Below are positions 1,695 through 36,761 of a DNA stretch of 41,294 nucleotides, in pieces (positions within the stretch are counted from its first letter, which is position 1; every line of letters starts with the position of its first letter). Below the pieces are notes generated by a model. It was not told the DNA's origin and searched no databases. It saw nothing but the letters and a program-made list of their open reading frames with translations. Source of the DNA: a virus; UHGV virus genome UHGV-0110231; one strand, written 5' to 3'. The translations under genes and the position numbers were made by a program.

Positions 1695-2341
1695 GCTGCA
1701 CGCTCCCGCCCCTGGTTGTCTGTTGGTGACAGCAGAGCATTGCTGAATGCATTTGTTAATCCGCCAATATCCAACGCGTATCCTGGGTGTAGTTGCACTG
1801 CCGGGTCTTCGCACTGATTACCCCAAACATCGAAACCATGAGACGACTGGCGGGCGAACAGTTCAATGCGAGAAACATCGCCTAACAATTGCACAAGTTT
1901 TTCACGAACGACATCTGGTTTTCTTGAATGCTCAAGCCGCGGTGCGGTAAATGACTGAACGATCCCTGCATTAATGCGCGGAGGTAGTTTTCCCTTTACT
2001 GCAAACAGGCAATCTTCACTATTGGCGCGAGTCATGTGTCCCATACCCATAACCAGTTTATCTGGTTGTCGACTACCACATTTTATCCATGTGAAGCCCT
2101 TCATGGTCATCAGACGGAATCCCCAGGCTTCAACAACTTTTAGAGCTTCGAGTGGTTGTGTTGGCACCCACCACATGGCCAACAGACAGTTTTCATCGGC
2201 CAAATCCCACACAGGAAGGCGGCAGATATCCATCACACTCATAACCGGATATTTAAAACCGGCACCGCGATTACCATCTGCGGCTTTGTCCCGGTATACC
2301 CAGGGTGGATCTGCATAGATTAGTGTGTATTTCTTAGTCAT
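1691..2341 (-). CDS. MT-A70-family N6-adenine DNA methyltransferase (orphan)
   Basis: 216 aa; catalytic DPPW motif within TLIYADPPWVY; no adjacent restriction endonuclease. Confidence 0.75.
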   Translation of the reverse strand: MTKKYTLIYADPPWVYRDKAADGNRGAGFKYPVMSVMDICRLPVWDLADENCLLAMWWVPTQPLEALKVVEAWGFRLMTMKGFTWIKCGSRQPDKLVMGMGHMTRANSEDCLFAVKGKLPPRINAGIVQSFTAPRLEHSRKPDVVREKLVQLLGDVSRIELFARQSSHGFDVWGNQCEDPAVQLHPGYALDIGGLTNAFSNALLSPTDNQGRERAA

Positions 2342-2633
2342 AAACCACCCCGCAACATCCTATACCGCTATAGTCGCCACGGCGAAGGCCGTTACCTTTT
2401 GTGATACATTGGTCCCTGCGAACCGCGATCCTTGCACGCTCAACATCACCAGAAGCAACATCCATACACTGAAGCCAAAGGTGAGCGGCAATGCGGAACT
2501 GTCCTTTTTTCTCTCTTTCAATTGCGCGTTTTTCGATCTCTATCGCCGCAGGAGTAACGGCGACAATCTTTGACGGACTGCGCATTGAAACCTTGTTCAT
2601 GTGATATTTTTCAAGTCGGCTTAACTTTCTCAC
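2334..2633 (-). CDS. Hypothetical protein
   Basis: 99-aa ORF in the leftward early operon; overlaps the methyltransferase start by 8 nt. Confidence 0.4.
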   Translation of the reverse strand: MRKLSRLEKYHMNKVSMRSPSKIVAVTPAAIEIEKRAIEREKKGQFRIAAHLWLQCMDVASGDVERARIAVRRDQCITKGNGLRRGDYSGIGCCGVVYD

Positions 2634-5191: not shown

Positions 5192-5210
5192 AACTTGTTA
5201 CCTCGGTCTG

Positions 5211-5225
5211 TTACCGTTGAGGTAA
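5211..5225. promoter_or_regulatory. Operator-like palindrome (putative PL region)
   Basis: TTACCGTTGAGGTAA; nested in a larger inverted repeat TTACCTC...GAGGTAA. Confidence 0.5.
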
Positions 5226-5272
5226 TAATTATGCGTATTTGGTTTGATGTCAATAGATATGAGTTGAAAAAA

Positions 5273-5287
5273 TTACCTATTAGGTAA
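5273..5287. promoter_or_regulatory. Operator-like palindrome (putative PL region)
   Basis: TTACCTATTAGGTAA, a perfect TTACC-N5-GGTAA. Confidence 0.5.
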
Positions 5288-5300
5288 TAGTATAGGCAAT

Positions 5301-5344: not shown

Positions 5345-5929
5345 TTATTGTTTGTTTTTTTCGTTCTGGTTGATGACAAATTCAATGTAACTTTCGATCT
5401 TTGCTTTCTCGGTTTCGGGTAACAATGCGTAGCGCGAGCGGTCATAGTTGATGGTCGCAGGGTCGTGCGGGTGAATCAGTAATTCATAGCCGTGACGCCC
5501 GAATGCGGATGCAACATTCTCCAGGGTGGAAATGGAAACGCTGACCTCATTGTTTAACAGGCGGCTGATTGTCACCTGGGCGACGCCGGATGCGCGGTGA
5601 AGTTTTCCCTGTGTTGAAAGGTCGCGGCTTTCGCTCATCCAGCGTTCCAGGTTGTGAGCCGCCAGCTGACCAATGTCGCTTGGGCCGACAGGCTGAAAAC
5701 CTTCCTGAGAAAGCGAGCGATCGATATCAAGCCAGTTACGGGGTTTATTGGCGGCAGCTTCAATTTTTCGCGCAACCTGGTCGCCGATAACCTTCTTGCC
5801 AAGAGCCCAGCGGTTTACCAGATTTGCCTGAGTTCCAAGTTTTTCTGCCATCCGCGTCTGAACACCATTGAATTCACGGTCGATCAAGTCGTTGAGATTT
5901 TGCCTGCGGACGTCCTGGATACTTTTCAT
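5345..5929 (-). CDS. Prophage repressor with two HTH (XRE-type) domains and no recognisable S24 peptidase domain
   Basis: 194 aa; N-terminal HTH (MAEKLGTQANLVNRWALGKK) and a second HTH (ASGVAQVTISRLLNNEVSVSISTLENVASAFG); divergent from the cro-like gene across an operator cluster. Confidence 0.7.
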   Translation of the reverse strand: MKSIQDVRRQNLNDLIDREFNGVQTRMAEKLGTQANLVNRWALGKKVIGDQVARKIEAAANKPRNWLDIDRSLSQEGFQPVGPSDIGQLAAHNLERWMSESRDLSTQGKLHRASGVAQVTISRLLNNEVSVSISTLENVASAFGRHGYELLIHPHDPATINYDRSRYALLPETEKAKIESYIEFVINQNEKNKQ

Positions 5930-5984
5930 TTTCTGGAAAATCGCCTCGTATATGAATCAGTAGATGATTCAATTTAAAGCAATA

Positions 5985-5999
5985 TTACCCAACAGGTAA
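5985..5999. promoter_or_regulatory. Operator site 1 in the repressor/cro intergenic region
   Basis: TTACCCAACAGGTAA. Confidence 0.55.
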
Positions 6000-6001
6000 A
6001 T

Positions 6002-14474: not shown

Positions 14475-14672
14475 AATCTCACCTTAAAAAAATGCCCGGC
14501 GAACCGGGCGAACTGGAAGCAATGAGTTATGCCTTCCGTGGCTGTACGGGTTTACAGCATGAAGTCATCGCAATGGCGTCCTGCTGTAAAAAGGGCGGTG
14601 ATAGTCCTTCAAGGGAAACCATCACCGCCAAGCCCATGGAACTTCTGGCATCACGGTCCTTAGGCGTGATTC

Positions 14673-14749
14673 TGGCGTGGCATGCAGGATTCGAACCTGC
14701 GACCAACCGCTTAGAAGGCGGTTGCTCTGTCCAACTGAGCTAATGCCAC
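14673..14749 (-). tRNA. tRNA-Arg (anticodon UCU), phage-encoded
   Basis: 77-nt cloverleaf read by hand: acceptor GTGGCAT/ATGCCAC, D-arm GCTC..GAGC, anticodon stem ACCGC/GCGGT with loop CTTCTAA, T-arm GCAGG-TTCGAAT-CCTGC, discriminator G, CCA encoded. Confidence 0.85.
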
Positions 14750-19568: not shown

Positions 19569-19904
19569 ATGTCAGGTGAGAAACCAAGATACCGCGTTCT
19601 GCGCCTCTCTCATATCCATAACACACTGTGGCCGGAGGGGGCAGAAATCGAATACGAAGGTGAGCCTGGTAGCGCACTGGAACCTGTTAACGATGCAGCC
19701 AGACAGGCAAAAGCAAAGGTAGCAGGAAAGGTGACTATGGCAGCAACCAGCACCAAAATCATCAACGATGTGTCAGATGATGGTGAACTGGATAAGCTCC
19801 GTGAAGAGTACGAATTGCTCTTTAACGAGAAGCCACACCATAACGCCAAAGCCGAAACGCTCCGCGAGAAGATCGCAGATAAGCGTAAAGAACTGGGCGT
19901 GTAA
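19569..19904 (+). CDS. Hypothetical structural-module protein
   Basis: AAGGTG Shine-Dalgarno; followed by a terminator. Confidence 0.45.
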   Translation: MSGEKPRYRVLRLSHIHNTLWPEGAEIEYEGEPGSALEPVNDAARQAKAKVAGKVTMAATSTKIINDVSDDGELDKLREEYELLFNEKPHHNAKAETLREKIADKRKELGV

Positions 19905-19920
19905 GCCTCGCGAATCAGAC

Positions 19921-31350: not shown

Positions 31351-31647
31351 ATGCAAGCTATAGGATTCATTGTTTATATCGTCGTTGGTCTTTTTCAGTT
31401 GGCAGTAATTATGGCTGGGCTTGAATCATGGTTTGGATTGCACTGGATAATTGCAGCCCCCATTGCTTTCATCGTTAGCTATATTCCATTTGTTGGAGCG
31501 ATTGTTGGTATGGTTGGCGCTGTGGATGTATGGCGGTGGGAGTGGTGGCAGGCTGGCCTTCTCTTCTTTGGTGGGATCATCTTTGCTATTGTCTGCGGTG
31601 GAATGTCATCATTTTTCGAATGGCTATCATTCAGAAAAAGAACGTGA
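31351..31647 (+). CDS. Polytopic inner-membrane protein; candidate superinfection-exclusion factor
   Basis: 98 aa, roughly three hydrophobic helices; sits where P22 carries sieA. Confidence 0.5.
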   Translation: MQAIGFIVYIVVGLFQLAVIMAGLESWFGLHWIIAAPIAFIVSYIPFVGAIVGMVGAVDVWRWEWWQAGLLFFGGIIFAIVCGGMSSFFEWLSFRKRT

Positions 31648-31655
31648 CATGTCAC
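31644..31655. repeat. Perfect 12-bp palindrome GTGACATGTCAC (copy 3)
   Basis: Overlaps the stop codon of the 31351..31647 gene, in the same register as copy 1. Confidence 0.7.
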
Positions 31656-31679
31656 AGGCCGCTTTCGCGGCCTTTAAAT

Positions 31680-31937
31680 TTACCGGGTTTGTTTTCGTAA
31701 TTGTTCGGCACAATAGTCGAGATGTGTTTGCAGATCCCGCATAGACATCTGTGAGCTGGTGACGTAGTTAATCAGTGCAGTCAGTTCGGCAAGTGGGCCA
31801 TCGACATTAAATCCATCCTTATCGAGATCCCGGAGTAATTTCATCAAGTGCGATCCTTCCACCAGTGACCTGACGCCTCCCGGCGTGTGAATCTTTTCGG
31901 TAAATCCGTCTTCCAGTGGATAGTGATACTGCTGCAT
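31680..31937 (-). CDS. Small protein (85 aa) under a LexA-box promoter; candidate SOS-inducible antirepressor or effector
   Basis: ATG at 31937 with GGAG Shine-Dalgarno; LexA box 20 nt upstream; the longer ORF to 32003 would place the box inside the coding sequence. Confidence 0.5.
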   Translation of the reverse strand: MQQYHYPLEDGFTEKIHTPGGVRSLVEGSHLMKLLRDLDKDGFNVDGPLAELTALINYVTSSQMSMRDLQTHLDYCAEQLRKQTR

Positions 31938-31956
31938 CTTATCTTCTCCATGCAAT

Positions 31957-31976
31957 AACTGTATAAATGTACAGTA
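31957..31976. promoter_or_regulatory. LexA (SOS) box
   Basis: AACTGTATAAATGTACAGTA against consensus TACTGTATATATATACAGTA; CTGT-N8-ACAG intact. Confidence 0.7.
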
Positions 31977-32023
31977 GCAAATAATTTGTTTGCTATCCAG
32001 CACGTTTTGCTAATCACCTGAAA

Positions 32024-32038
32024 GGTAATATCTGTTCG
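32024..32038. promoter_or_regulatory. Operator-like palindrome in the divergent region before the tailspike
   Basis: TCACCTGAAAGGTAA. Confidence 0.45.
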
Positions 32039-32132
32039 TATTCATGAGCTATATATCCATATATGGTTTTTCAGGTAATAGAATAACCAGATATGCGGCG
32101 CAACGGGTGCTGCGACTATCTGGAGATTTAAC

Positions 32133-34922
32133 ATGACGGTCTCAACCGTAGTTGACCATAACGATTACACCGGGAACGGCGTTACGACATCCTTCCCGTA
32201 TACCTTCCGCATTTTCAACAAATCTGACCTGGTTGTTCAGGTGGTTGACCTTGATGAAAATATCGCTGTGCTAGCTCTTGATACTGATTACACAGTTACC
32301 GGGGCTGGAGGGTATAACGGTGGTAATGTAATTCTGTCGAAGGCGTTGGCTAACGGTTATCAGATTTCTATATCACGAGAACTCCCGGTTACGCAGGAAA
32401 CTGATTTGCGTAATCAGGGTAAGTTCTTTGCTGAGGTGCATGAAGACGCGTTCGATAAACTGACGATGCTGATACAGCAGGCGTACAGTGTGTTCCGCCT
32501 GGCGCTTCGCAAGCCGTCCAGCATCGCGAATTGGTACGATGCATTGGGAAACTACATCCGTAATGTGCGTGACCCTCGAGATCCTCAGGATGCGGCCACA
32601 AAGCATTACGTCGACTCATTAAGTGCAGGAAATACATCACATACTGATTTGTTATTTAGTAGAACATTGCGTACCGCAGAGAGCATCCCGCAACTTCCAT
32701 CTGTGGAGTCGCGAAAAAATAAAATTGTTGGCATGGATAACAACGGTAATCCCATAATGTTATTGCCTGAATCAGGAAGCGCGGCTGATGTCATGATTGA
32801 ACTGGCAAAAAATAGCGGAGCTGGGCTGATAGGATACAATGATACAGAGGAATACCCAGATGGAACGGTTGGCGATATTCTCAATAGACGACCTTTCGTT
32901 CAACTTTCTGATTTCGGCGTTACTGGATCTGGCGATGAAACAGAGAAGGTTAGATCGGCACATGCCAAAGCCAATGCTCGAGGCGTTCCCGTTATCTATG
33001 ATGTCTCTGAAGTTACTCTTGATGCAAAAGCAAACATAGAAGTCAGAACATCAGTAGACTTTAATGGTTGCATTATCCATCCTGTATTTTATGGAACGCC
33101 ATCTTACGACACAACGCCGACTTATTCGTTGCTAGGTAAAGCGTCTGAAAACGTGACATCAAAACTGTCACAGTCTGGTATGCGTAAGGGTGAAATGGCC
33201 CTTTACGGCGGTATGGCATCTTATAGTCGTGGAACATTCTGGATGGATACACGAGACCCTTTATGTAAACGTAGTCTCTCCGATGTGACCCCAAACCACT
33301 ATAAGACAACGATAAACCGCATCACGAAGTATGGTGGTTTACAGTATCCACTTGAGCATGATTTTACTGCATCACCTTCTCCAGAGGCCTACTTCAGACC
33401 TGATGAAGACTTCTGGTTGAAAGTTGAAGGCGCTCACATTGATACGTCTGGTATGACGTCAGGTGTTGTTTTTAAAGCATTAAGGTCCCAAGTTAAGTTT
33501 TCAGACATAACTGTACGGCAAGACGACAATGTTAAGATGACAAACATCCGGCAAATATTTTATCTCGGTGATGGTGTTAGCCAGATAAGATTTAATGACG
33601 TATCAGCAGAGGCTATGTCGAGCTATAACGCGAACAATGGCACATATCTGTTAAGCAGCAATTATGCGGCAGAGATTATTCTAGATAATGTTAATGCTGT
33701 GCAAGGTTGGGGTGCTCTCGGTCTTCATAAAGTGAGAGATTTGACAGTTACTAATTCAACTTTAAATCGGGTAGATGGACATTATCATATTTTCGACATA
33801 GACGTTAATCACACTAAGTTACACGAGTTCGGTGTACTCATTGGTGCTGGTGGAGGATACCTTCGTGTAACAAATTGCACTAAGTACCTCGGCACTCAAA
33901 CAGACCTAACTGGGACGAGCGGGACTGCTATAGATAAGACACGCCGAAGTGTCATCTATATGCGAGACGATTACGGTAGCTATTTTGACGGGGATATCAC
34001 CGTCGACAACGTAGTGTATAAAATGTCCAGAGAATTATCATTTGCTTCTGCATCCGAGGAGTGGCCAGGTATTCTGTCCTGTGTGTCGTTCAATGCCGGG
34101 GTTAGTACAACAAGTTCAACAACTCCTGATTATGGCTATACAGCACCAGTTCCGTGGGGGACAACTGTCACTGTTAAAAACATTACGGTAGAAGTGTTTA
34201 GGGATTCAATACTGGATTCATGGCTCACTTTTGTAGCTGTTAACTACAACGGGAATTACATACTTCCCAGCGTGTTAATGCCAGCAAGTATCACTGTGAA
34301 AGATATTAAATATAGCAAACCTCCGAGGACTGCGAAAATAGCACCCGTCATTCTCCCGGATTTACGTGGAACAACTGCGGCAGTTGCCTCTGCTAATAAT
34401 CGGGCTTTCTTTAACTCAATAATTAATATTGAGAATATTCAAAGTGGTTTTGCAAAAGACCGTCAAATCGGAGCTCTGAATACTGGGGTCCAGACACTTA
34501 TGTGCATGTATACTCAGACAGAGATATCTAACTTCCCTACTCCGTCTGTTGTTCCAGAAATAAATGTGCGTAACTTTTATGGCTTTTCTGGTAAGTTTGA
34601 CATTCCAGGAAGACTAAGCCTAACGGACTGCTTCGTCATTTCTCTGACCGACTCATCTGGTGGCAGAAATGCAGATTCTTTTATAAAAGTATCCGGAGGG
34701 TTTGTCTACGCGTTGCCTAGTTCTTCTGGTGGTTCTTCATCACAGCTACCAAGAGCCGAGTGGAATTCTGTTAGGTTTATTAAAAGCCCTGTCTCTCCAG
34801 ACCTAACTGATTACGACTCAATACAGGGTTGCACATTCGAAAATGGCAATCCACCGATAGGGATAACAGTGGCACTTGCGTTTTCAGGAAGTGTTGGTGA
34901 CGCTGCTAATAGATTGCAATAA
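32133..34922 (+). CDS. Tailspike / receptor-binding protein
   Basis: 929 aa; N-terminal particle-binding domain (MTVSTVVDHNDYTGNGVTTSFPYTFRIF...) followed by a long Ser/Thr/Asn/Gly-rich beta-helix-like region. Confidence 0.75.
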   Translation: MTVSTVVDHNDYTGNGVTTSFPYTFRIFNKSDLVVQVVDLDENIAVLALDTDYTVTGAGGYNGGNVILSKALANGYQISISRELPVTQETDLRNQGKFFAEVHEDAFDKLTMLIQQAYSVFRLALRKPSSIANWYDALGNYIRNVRDPRDPQDAATKHYVDSLSAGNTSHTDLLFSRTLRTAESIPQLPSVESRKNKIVGMDNNGNPIMLLPESGSAADVMIELAKNSGAGLIGYNDTEEYPDGTVGDILNRRPFVQLSDFGVTGSGDETEKVRSAHAKANARGVPVIYDVSEVTLDAKANIEVRTSVDFNGCIIHPVFYGTPSYDTTPTYSLLGKASENVTSKLSQSGMRKGEMALYGGMASYSRGTFWMDTRDPLCKRSLSDVTPNHYKTTINRITKYGGLQYPLEHDFTASPSPEAYFRPDEDFWLKVEGAHIDTSGMTSGVVFKALRSQVKFSDITVRQDDNVKMTNIRQIFYLGDGVSQIRFNDVSAEAMSSYNANNGTYLLSSNYAAEIILDNVNAVQGWGALGLHKVRDLTVTNSTLNRVDGHYHIFDIDVNHTKLHEFGVLIGAGGGYLRVTNCTKYLGTQTDLTGTSGTAIDKTRRSVIYMRDDYGSYFDGDITVDNVVYKMSRELSFASASEEWPGILSCVSFNAGVSTTSSTTPDYGYTAPVPWGTTVTVKNITVEVFRDSILDSWLTFVAVNYNGNYILPSVLMPASITVKDIKYSKPPRTAKIAPVILPDLRGTTAAVASANNRAFFNSIINIENIQSGFAKDRQIGALNTGVQTLMCMYTQTEISNFPTPSVVPEINVRNFYGFSGKFDIPGRLSLTDCFVISLTDSSGGRNADSFIKVSGGFVYALPSSSGGSSSQLPRAEWNSVRFIKSPVSPDLTDYDSIQGCTFENGNPPIGITVALAFSGSVGDAANRLQ

Positions 34923-34958: not shown

Positions 34959-36761
34959 TTAATTTATTTTTGATAAAAGATACTTACCTACTATTTTAGA
35001 ACCATCACTAGAAAGATGCCCACCATCAAAATAAACCGGTTTATCATTATGAATAACCATGCACTTCCCATTCTTGCACAGCTCGTCTTTAGGATTTATT
35101 ATCTTATAAGAGGCAAGCCCATCCCCTGAGTTCTCTATAAATAAATCATCAAGTTTTGTGCTCTTTATATCTACTAAATTTTTGCAGCCATCAAGTATGT
35201 GTCTAACTGGAAGTCTATTTCCATTCATGCAAGAAACAACGTCATAGTTTGGATGTTGGTAATTTCCTATTACATACATTCTTTTATCTTTATTAATAAG
35301 TTGTCGCCACTTGTTTATTTGTGAGAGTATAACATTATTATATGATGACTTACTTACATAATCTCCATGACGACTTATTAATTTATCATTATATCTCTCC
35401 CAGTTATGAGCAAGTATTATAGTGTTTGATTTCGATTTATTTATCTCATTGATTGCTTTTTCATACATCGAATAGCATCCTGATTCTTCTTTAGCATAAT
35501 AATCAGGAAGAATTGGGCATGACACTAACGAAATAAATGTTGCATTTATACCTTCACTGTCAATAAAGTCAATGAATTGCTGTGAGTAGCTATCACCAAC
35601 AAAAATAATGCCATCCTGTTTGCTTGATTCATTCAAATGCAAAATCTTTCCATTTGCCTTACCAAATAGTCTGTGTCCTCCATATGACGTATCCACCTTG
35701 CTACTTATCCTTGATGGAGCACCGGCGTAAAATATTGATGATGATATTAACATCATAAATATATATGAAAACAAAATAATATTTATATTTTTAACTTTAG
35801 ATTCAACTAAATGATGAAGTATTAATGATAAAGTGAAAACAATAAACAAATAAAAAAATAACCCAACCTCAATATTTAACTTTCTGAAAAACACTATGAC
35901 AGGCCAATGCACAAGATAAATCGAATAAGAAATTATTCCTATGTACTGTATTACTCTGTTTCTAAAGAATGAATTTTCGTTCATTCCTGAATGTATTACA
36001 AGCATAGCTCCGACAACAGGCACTATTGCATTTACGCCAGGCCACGCCATCGTGTCATTATAAATAATGAATGATAACAGTATCAATACAACACCAAATA
36101 TCTCTCCAATCCTATTTAATTTTAATTTTTTATTAATCACATAAACTATTGCCCCGCCCATCATTTGCCAGGATCTTCCGGGGAGAGAATAGTATGCAAA
36201 TTTACTATGATTGAATGCTTGATATATAGAAAGCGCAAGCGATAAAACGAATATTGAGTAAATAAGAACAACTCTATTGCTTCTATTTTTTACGAGATAT
36301 AAAAAAATTGGGAATAGTATATAGAATTGCCATTCAACAGAAAGTGACCACGTATGAAGTAGTATTTTGCTTTTTGAGTCCGAATCAAAATACCCACTCT
36401 CAAATGCATACACATAATTTGATATGAATGACATGCTTGATAGCATATGCTTTCCAAGCATTTTGTATGATGTTACATCAAGTGATACAAAACCTATTAT
36501 TGAAGTAAACAAAACAACTGCAATAAGTGCTGGTATAATTCTTTTTACTCTTGATGTGTAAAATTTTTTAAATGAAAAGTTACCATTATCCATCCCATTC
36601 ATTATGATGGAGGTCATAAGATAACCTGATATCACGAAGAAAATATCTACGCCAGCAAATCCACCCGGTAACCACTGCGGATTAAAATGAAAAATCACAA
36701 CAGACATGACTGCTATAGCTCTCAGTCCGTCAATATCCTTTCTGCGTTGAATGGAAGGCAT
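34959..36761 (-). CDS. Membrane acyltransferase-3 (OafA-like) with C-terminal SGNH domain; putative O-antigen acetyltransferase
   Basis: 600 aa; N-terminal acyltransferase-3 motifs (DGLRAIAVMSVVIFHF), multiple TM helices, soluble C-terminal domain; strongly AT-rich compared with the rest of the prophage. Confidence 0.75.
   Translation of the reverse strand: MPSIQRRKDIDGLRAIAVMSVVIFHFNPQWLPGGFAGVDIFFVISGYLMTSIIMNGMDNGNFSFKKFYTSRVKRIIPALIAVVLFTSIIGFVSLDVTSYKMLGKHMLSSMSFISNYVYAFESGYFDSDSKSKILLHTWSLSVEWQFYILFPIFLYLVKNRSNRVVLIYSIFVLSLALSIYQAFNHSKFAYYSLPGRSWQMMGGAIVYVINKKLKLNRIGEIFGVVLILLSFIIYNDTMAWPGVNAIVPVVGAMLVIHSGMNENSFFRNRVIQYIGIISYSIYLVHWPVIVFFRKLNIEVGLFFYLFIVFTLSLILHHLVESKVKNINIILFSYIFMMLISSSIFYAGAPSRISSKVDTSYGGHRLFGKANGKILHLNESSKQDGIIFVGDSYSQQFIDFIDSEGINATFISLVSCPILPDYYAKEESGCYSMYEKAINEINKSKSNTIILAHNWERYNDKLISRHGDYVSKSSYNNVILSQINKWRQLINKDKRMYVIGNYQHPNYDVVSCMNGNRLPVRHILDGCKNLVDIKSTKLDDLFIENSGDGLASYKIINPKDELCKNGKCMVIHNDKPVYFDGGHLSSDGSKIVGKYLLSKIN

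Follow-up and report, generated by a model that had tools for sequence, protein, structure and literature searches.

A probable LexA-controlled antirepressor of the SPC32H Ant/Rep type in a phiV10/epsilon15-like prophage of Escherichia coli

Introduction

The Ant/Rep pair of Salmonella phage SPC32H is the closest described relative of the locus reported here. It was reportedly characterised genetically and crystallised in studies by Kim & Ryu (2013, J Virol 87:11775) and Kim et al. (2016, PNAS 113:E2480), and the abstract of the former is said to describe its Ant as structurally distinct from the antirepressors of the Tum/Gifsy type. According to PMC7380047, the SOS response and cleavage of LexA lead to production of SPC32H Ant, which inhibits the phage repressor by protein-protein contact. 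PMC9638917 describes SPC32H Rep as binding DNA as a tetramer, which is broken apart when two Rep dimers are bound by an Ant tetramer, and PMC9986798 names the C-terminal domain of Rep as the part that mediates tetramerisation as well as the binding of Ant. The LexA-controlled Ant/Rep mechanism is already known from this phage and the system is not new.

In the temperate podophage P22 the antirepressor gene of immI directly precedes the tailspike gene and is remote from the main immunity region. The P22 Ant has about 300 residues and is unrelated to the protein described below; its regulators are Mnt, Arc and the sar RNA instead of LexA. Because of these two differences a parallel to immI, which a preliminary description of the present locus had drawn, holds for position only. 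PMC7380047 adds that the c2 repressor of P22 is RecA-cleavable and that P22 ant mutants are still SOS-inducible. That source describes a functional likeness in the Tum system of phage 186 and in the Gifsy and Fels-2 prophages (for these systems see also Shearwin 1998; Lemire et al. 2011, PMC3121763), where a non-cleavable repressor is inactivated by protein-protein contact with a small, LexA-repressed antirepressor.

Here we analyse a window of 41,294 nucleotides, the whole stretch of virus genome UHGV-0110231 that was examined, and an 85-aa gene on its minus strand, which we call ant. The mechanism being established, the value of the analysis lies in the annotation and in a few follow-up questions.

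Results

Phage identity and gene order

DNA and protein comparisons showed that the window is a temperate podophage prophage similar to phiV10 and epsilon15, genus Uetakevirus. Phage landmarks are an integrase gene near the left end and the tailspike gene at 32133..34922. The ant region was used as a 901-bp query against 5,426 complete E. coli genomes and matched 550 of them, with at least 80% of the query covered in 47. The best match was 97% identical, so the exact prophage is absent from this collection. Among the E. coli RefSeq matches listed, the features under the ant region were mostly annotated as 'hypothetical protein', the tail gene excepted.

The gene order is common to the window, phiV10, SPC32H and epsilon15: a gene for a large virion protein is followed by one for a small membrane protein, by ant on the opposite strand and by the tailspike gene. 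ant is divergent from the tailspike gene and convergent with the genes of the virion and membrane proteins, which is its position in SPC32H. A GC-rich hairpin (31656..31673) separates ant from the convergent gene of the membrane protein and is terminator-like on the plus strand, while it lacks a U-tract on the ant strand; epsilon15 annotates a rho-independent terminator at the matching place. The membrane-type protein beside ant (31351..31647, plus strand; phrog_3075, E = 4e-53) has 98 residues and replaces the integral membrane protein of 46 residues of phiV10 and SPC32H, a small cassette difference. An Rfam scan of the ant locus found no family.

The ant gene and its product

ant extends over 31680..31937 on the minus strand including the stop codon. 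A Shine-Dalgarno sequence GGAG (31946..31949, minus strand) is located 8 nt before the ATG and was invariant in nine aligned phages. Because the conserved GGAG-ATG marks the start we assigned it to the ATG at 31937, as in the preliminary description of this open reading frame. A version of 107 aa with a GTG start (31680..32003) was rejected; its extension crosses the LexA box and is missing from SPC32H Ant. In phage PAS61 the ant CDS is annotated with 381 nt (1750..2130 of locus L003) and a start upstream of the LexA box, which is probably a start-codon mis-call.

The 85-aa protein matched chain E of PDB 5D50, 'Anti-repressor protein', over residues 2-84 with E = 4.4e-46 and was assigned to phrog_450 with E = 1e-47. 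It is equal in length and 85.9% identical to the product of the SPC32H gene, which is annotated as 'ant: anti-repressor protein' in GenBank. The same gene is found at the same locus and with the same LexA box in phiV10 (p24; 97.6% identity) and in epsilon15 (gp19; 81.9%), and both products are deposited as 'hypothetical protein'. The earlier view of the protein as an orphan that might be new has to be abandoned in favour of membership in the SPC32H Ant family. A Pfam scan yielded only a sub-threshold and spurious match to DUF724 (17 bits, cutoff 38); it revealed neither a Bro-N (PF02498) nor an ANT domain, and gave no sign of a relationship to Tum or to DinI-like domains. Thus, while Ant resembles the small antirepressors of phage 186 and the Gifsy phages in the features named above, it differs from them in having no detectable sequence relationship.

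Ant as a whole shows homology to phrog_1760 and, with E = 3e-20, to the C-terminal domain of gp20, a Bro-N antirepressor of Enterobacter phage Tyrion. Tyrion gp20 (1773..2477 of locus L007) is an antirepressor of 234 aa encoded just downstream of ant, and its Ant-like domain comprises residues 153-230 with 40% identity to Ant (E = 3e-20). Judged by these alignments the Ant fold is modular: some relatives have, directly downstream of ant, a gene for a Bro-N antirepressor that carries this fold as its C-terminal domain. The Bro-N protein phiV10p23 (1867..2451 of locus L001) retains only the first ~31 residues of the Ant-like domain and looks truncated. In phiV10, p23 is an 'anti-immunity' gene located downstream of ant, and it is missing from the window; a tblastn search of the window for a second antirepressor like phiV10p23 gave ant itself as the sole match.

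The repressor Rep

The presumed target of Ant is the prophage repressor Rep, a protein of 194 aa encoded at 5345..5929 on the minus strand. Rep matched PDB 5D50 chain A, 'Repressor', over residues 1-190 with E = 4e-42 and PDB 5D4Z with E = 4e-20. It is 100% identical to the repressor of phiV10. The identity to SPC32H Rep amounts to 43%, rising to 53% in the N-terminal domain and falling to 40% in the C-terminal one. The Pfam scan identified HTH families only, i.e. HTH_3 at residues 106-147 and a weaker HTH-like match at residues 21-61, and no match to Peptidase_S24. These data bear out the preliminary description, which had left the strand unstated and had read the gene as a repressor with two HTH domains and no S24 autopeptidase domain. 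In an alignment of six Reps the C-terminal segment contained the invariant residues I160, Y162, D163, Y167, L170, P171 and E174, followed by K175, K177, I178, F184, Q188 and N189.

Ant was found in 35 and Rep in 36 records of Uetakevirus-type phages, essentially one set, and the counts of the two were near-identical by organism name (E. coli, Salmonella, Klebsiella, Enterobacter). The degree of conservation was different for the two proteins. Between E. coli and Salmonella phages Ant is 82-86% identical, Rep only 42-43%; for the Klebsiella phages the values are 58-63% and 45%. The comparison indicates that Ant and Rep are evolving, or are being exchanged, at very different rates.

The LexA box and the putative ant promoter

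The sequence AACTGTATAAATGTACAGTA at 31957..31976 agrees with the E. coli LexA consensus TACTGTATATATATACAGTA in 17 of 20 positions and retains an intact CTGT-N8-ACAG core; 19 nt separate it from the ATG of ant. The coordinates of this near-consensus box and its distance of about 20 nt from the gene had been given correctly before. It is the sole site in the window with at most three mismatches to the consensus, and no such site occurred in 100 shuffled sequences. We also scored the window with an approximate PWM of E. coli LexA operators from the literature; the box reached 24.0 bits, a value within the range of the training sites, while the next site in the window scored 10.7 bits and the best of 30 shuffles 19.9 bits. 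The bare CTGT-N8-ACAG core occurs twice in the window against 0.57 expected matches, and 11 of 100 shuffles reached two. The core alone is weak evidence for a LexA site. Its second occurrence, at 14542, was rejected as a LexA site, because its spacer is GC-rich and its 9.4 bits are below the shuffle level.

The intergenic region between ant and the tailspike gene was aligned for nine phages, whose hosts are E. coli, Salmonella, Enterobacter and Klebsiella. The flanks diverge in this alignment, in contrast to the LexA box, the GGAG and the ATG, which are conserved apart from one change in the left arm of the box in the Klebsiella phages. The LexA box of the window aligns with that of SPC32H and has an equal distance from the ATG. 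A comparison of SPC32H with SPC32N showed two base differences only in the 2.6-kb locus. One is a C to A change in the LexA box, which converts ACAG to AAAG and is equivalent to base 31961 of the window; the other affects codon 5 of the tailspike gene. The abstract of Kim & Ryu (2013) reportedly states that the box mutation of SPC32N makes Ant constitutive and that the phage cannot stay lysogenic.

In all nine phages a TGGA.A block is invariant, and a constant distance of 17 nt separates it from the TA at the start of the LexA box downstream. From this phylogenetic footprint we infer an ant promoter at 31971..31999 on the minus strand that overlaps the LexA box at -10, with TGGATA as -35 (31999..31994), a spacer of 17 nt and TACTGT as -10 (31976..31971). 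The putative -10 agrees with TATAAT at three of six positions. Conservation alone provides the placement, because a simple sigma-70 scan of 31600..32200 called no promoter at the LexA box. With this arrangement LexA would sit on the -10 hexamer and the start site.

The ATTACC-N5-GGTAAT palindromes

Beyond the LexA box lies the sequence ATCACC-TGAAA-GGTAAT (ATCACCTGAAAGGTAAT), which has one mismatch to the palindrome ATTACC-N5-GGTAAT and is conserved in the nine phages. A site of the TTACC-N5-GGTAA family had been noted here before; its existence was corroborated, while its position has to be corrected from 32024..32038 to 32013..32029, about ten bases to the left. The palindrome belongs to a family with 15 sites in the window at up to two mismatches against 1.16 expected. 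The 17-nt sites start at 188, 5210, 5272, 5984, 6369, 8315, 8377, 11926, 11944, 15071, 24345, 32013, 36801, 37265 and 37340, and the better-matched ones are mostly intergenic and near gene starts; the intergenic ones are those at 5210, 5272, 5984, 6369, 8315/8377, 11926/11944, 15071, 32013 and 36801. Two of them (5210..5288) lie between rep and the leftward early operon, and this two-site arrangement downstream of rep recurs in epsilon15, SPC32H, Tyrion, BUCT554 and BUCT711. Another site, ATTACC-N5-GGTAAA at 5984..6000, is located in the rep-cro intergenic region and has equivalents upstream of rep in SPC32H, Tyrion and BUCT711. In the RefSeq entry of epsilon15 the palindrome is labelled 'protein_bind: repressor; lysogeny' at corresponding places; the site orthologous to 32013..32029 (19895..19911 of epsilon15, between gp19 and the tailspike gene) carries a repressor-site annotation as well. 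Most likely the family represents the operators of Rep, as far as its distribution and the epsilon15 annotation can tell. A location of the palindrome on the flanks of rep is shared by SPC32H, Tyrion, BUCT554 and BUCT711, in spite of an identity of only ~42% between the Reps.

Closer to the tailspike gene two further elements, at 32074..32079 and 32058..32063, are invariant in the nine phages. They are a lone half-site of the GGAAT type, GGTAAT, which reads TATTACC on the ant strand, and a CATAT block. They are located ~55-75 bp upstream of the tailspike ATG, and epsilon15 annotates an IHF site nearby. Both may be part of the promoter or regulatory region of the tailspike gene.

Discussion

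The window has every feature of an SPC32H-type Ant/Rep system that can be tested in a sequence. The likeness comprises an orthologous Ant, a homologous Rep with two HTH-like domains and a C-terminal tetramerisation and Ant-binding segment, the spacing of the LexA box, the location of ant between a virion-protein gene and the tailspike gene, and ATTACC-N5-GGTAAT sites flanking rep. The differences are a Rep of the phiV10 type, E. coli instead of Salmonella as a host, and the larger membrane-protein neighbour. Thus we favor the view, with a probability of roughly 0.88, that a phiV10/epsilon15-like prophage uses this locus as an SOS-sensing switch for its induction and that the switch is of the SPC32H Ant/Rep type. 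We base this assignment on the homology of Ant and Rep to their crystallised counterparts, on identical synteny, on a strong, unique and conserved LexA box and on the lack of an S24 domain in Rep; LexA control, the binding of Ant to Rep and the non-cleavage of Rep are taken from the literature on SPC32H. The preliminary description had proposed an induction through a LexA-repressed antirepressor encoded far from the immunity region, and the orthology to SPC32H Ant and Rep speaks for this proposal.

In the lysogen, host LexA bound to the box at 31957..31976 would overlap the ant promoter and keep ant silent. Upon DNA damage RecA would become active and LexA would cleave itself, so that ant would be transcribed. 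The 85-aa Ant would then bind to the C-terminal tetramerisation and Ant-binding part of the non-cleavable Rep and split the DNA-binding Rep tetramer into dimers. Rep would leave its operators and the lytic genes would be turned on. We infer that the SPC32H mechanism holds for the phiV10-type Rep. The contact of Ant with this Rep is extrapolated from the SPC32H pair, because the two Reps share 43% identity overall and 40% in the Ant-binding C-terminal half. In human E. coli isolates a DNA-damaging microcin gave a 21- to 47-fold induction of prophages of the phiV10 species (bioRxiv 10.64898/2026.05.26.727859), which is compatible with an SOS-linked switch in this type of phage.

Several other explanations were weighed against this reading. 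Ant might act mainly on the repressors of co-resident prophages, like in the crosstalk of the Gifsy phages, or on a host target. The high conservation of Ant next to a diverged Rep in E. coli and Salmonella phages leaves room for a constraint besides the cognate Rep, and crosstalk by trans-acting antirepressors is documented in Salmonella (PMC3121763; PMC7380047). On the other hand, Ant and Rep occur in essentially one set of phage records, the C-terminal residues listed above are invariant across six Reps, and the crystallised complex in PDB 5D50 contains the cognate Rep, so we consider a different main target improbable. Still less credit can be given to RecA-stimulated self-cleavage of the repressor as in lambda, by which the LexA-controlled gene would be dispensable for induction. 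While this is the textbook default for SOS-inducible prophages, we found no evidence in its support; Rep has no Peptidase_S24 match and is a full-length homologue of SPC32H Rep, which PMC7380047 and PMC9638917 describe as inactivated by Ant and not by cleavage. That the LexA box is a chance palindrome devoid of a regulatory role could be argued from the weak enrichment of the bare core. Yet, the full 20-mer was unequalled in the shuffles and stood far above the next site in bits, its position and sequence are conserved in phages of four host genera, and SPC32H and SPC32N differ at exactly this box. The probability of a chance occurrence is accordingly close to nil.

The role of the palindrome at 32013..32029 is more evenly balanced. 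Its edge is 14 bp away from the putative -35 of ant, and it lies ~57 bp upstream of the predicted ant start. We lean slightly towards a Rep operator that belongs to the divergent transcription unit of the tailspike gene and is outside the control of ant. The better-matched sites mostly precede the starts of rightward genes on the plus strand (8396, the terminase region at ~11.9 kb, 15157 and 36913), the sites of epsilon15 occupy matching places, and the distance to the ant start is an odd position for simple occlusion. Against this stand the proximity to the -35 and the outcome of the sigma-70 scan, in which no clear rightward promoter overlapped the palindrome. In addition, Rep is a looping-type tetramer according to PMC9986798, which would leave room for an action on the ant promoter.

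A recognition of the gene as a LexA-controlled ant would explain how prophages of the phiV10 type sense DNA damage in spite of a repressor that is not cleavable. The prophages concerned include those of O157:H7 and other STEC backgrounds. It would also close a gap in the annotation of E. coli genomes, where ant is carried as a 'hypothetical protein' among the matches listed. The 82-86% identity of Ant compared to 42% for Rep suggests that one Ant might inactivate several types of Rep. That this is so, or that Rep co-represses ant from the conserved palindrome 14 bp upstream of the putative -35, is a tentative idea to which we assign a rather low probability. If a single Ant did act on multiple Reps, cross-induction between heteroimmune Uetakevirus prophages would be allowed. 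If Rep co-repressed ant, the gene would be derepressed by its own product, and a positive-feedback latch would be added to the control by LexA. For prophage cross-talk, the contrast in conservation between Ant and Rep offers a modest lead that can be tested.

Two further genes of the window complete the description. Directly after the tailspike gene, on the opposite strand, is the gene for an O-antigen acetyltransferase of 600 aa with AT3 and SGNH parts (34959..36761, minus strand; phrog_6705), a serotype-conversion moron as in phiV10. ARAGORN and Rfam both called a phage-encoded tRNA-Arg with the anticodon TCT at 14673..14749 on the minus strand.
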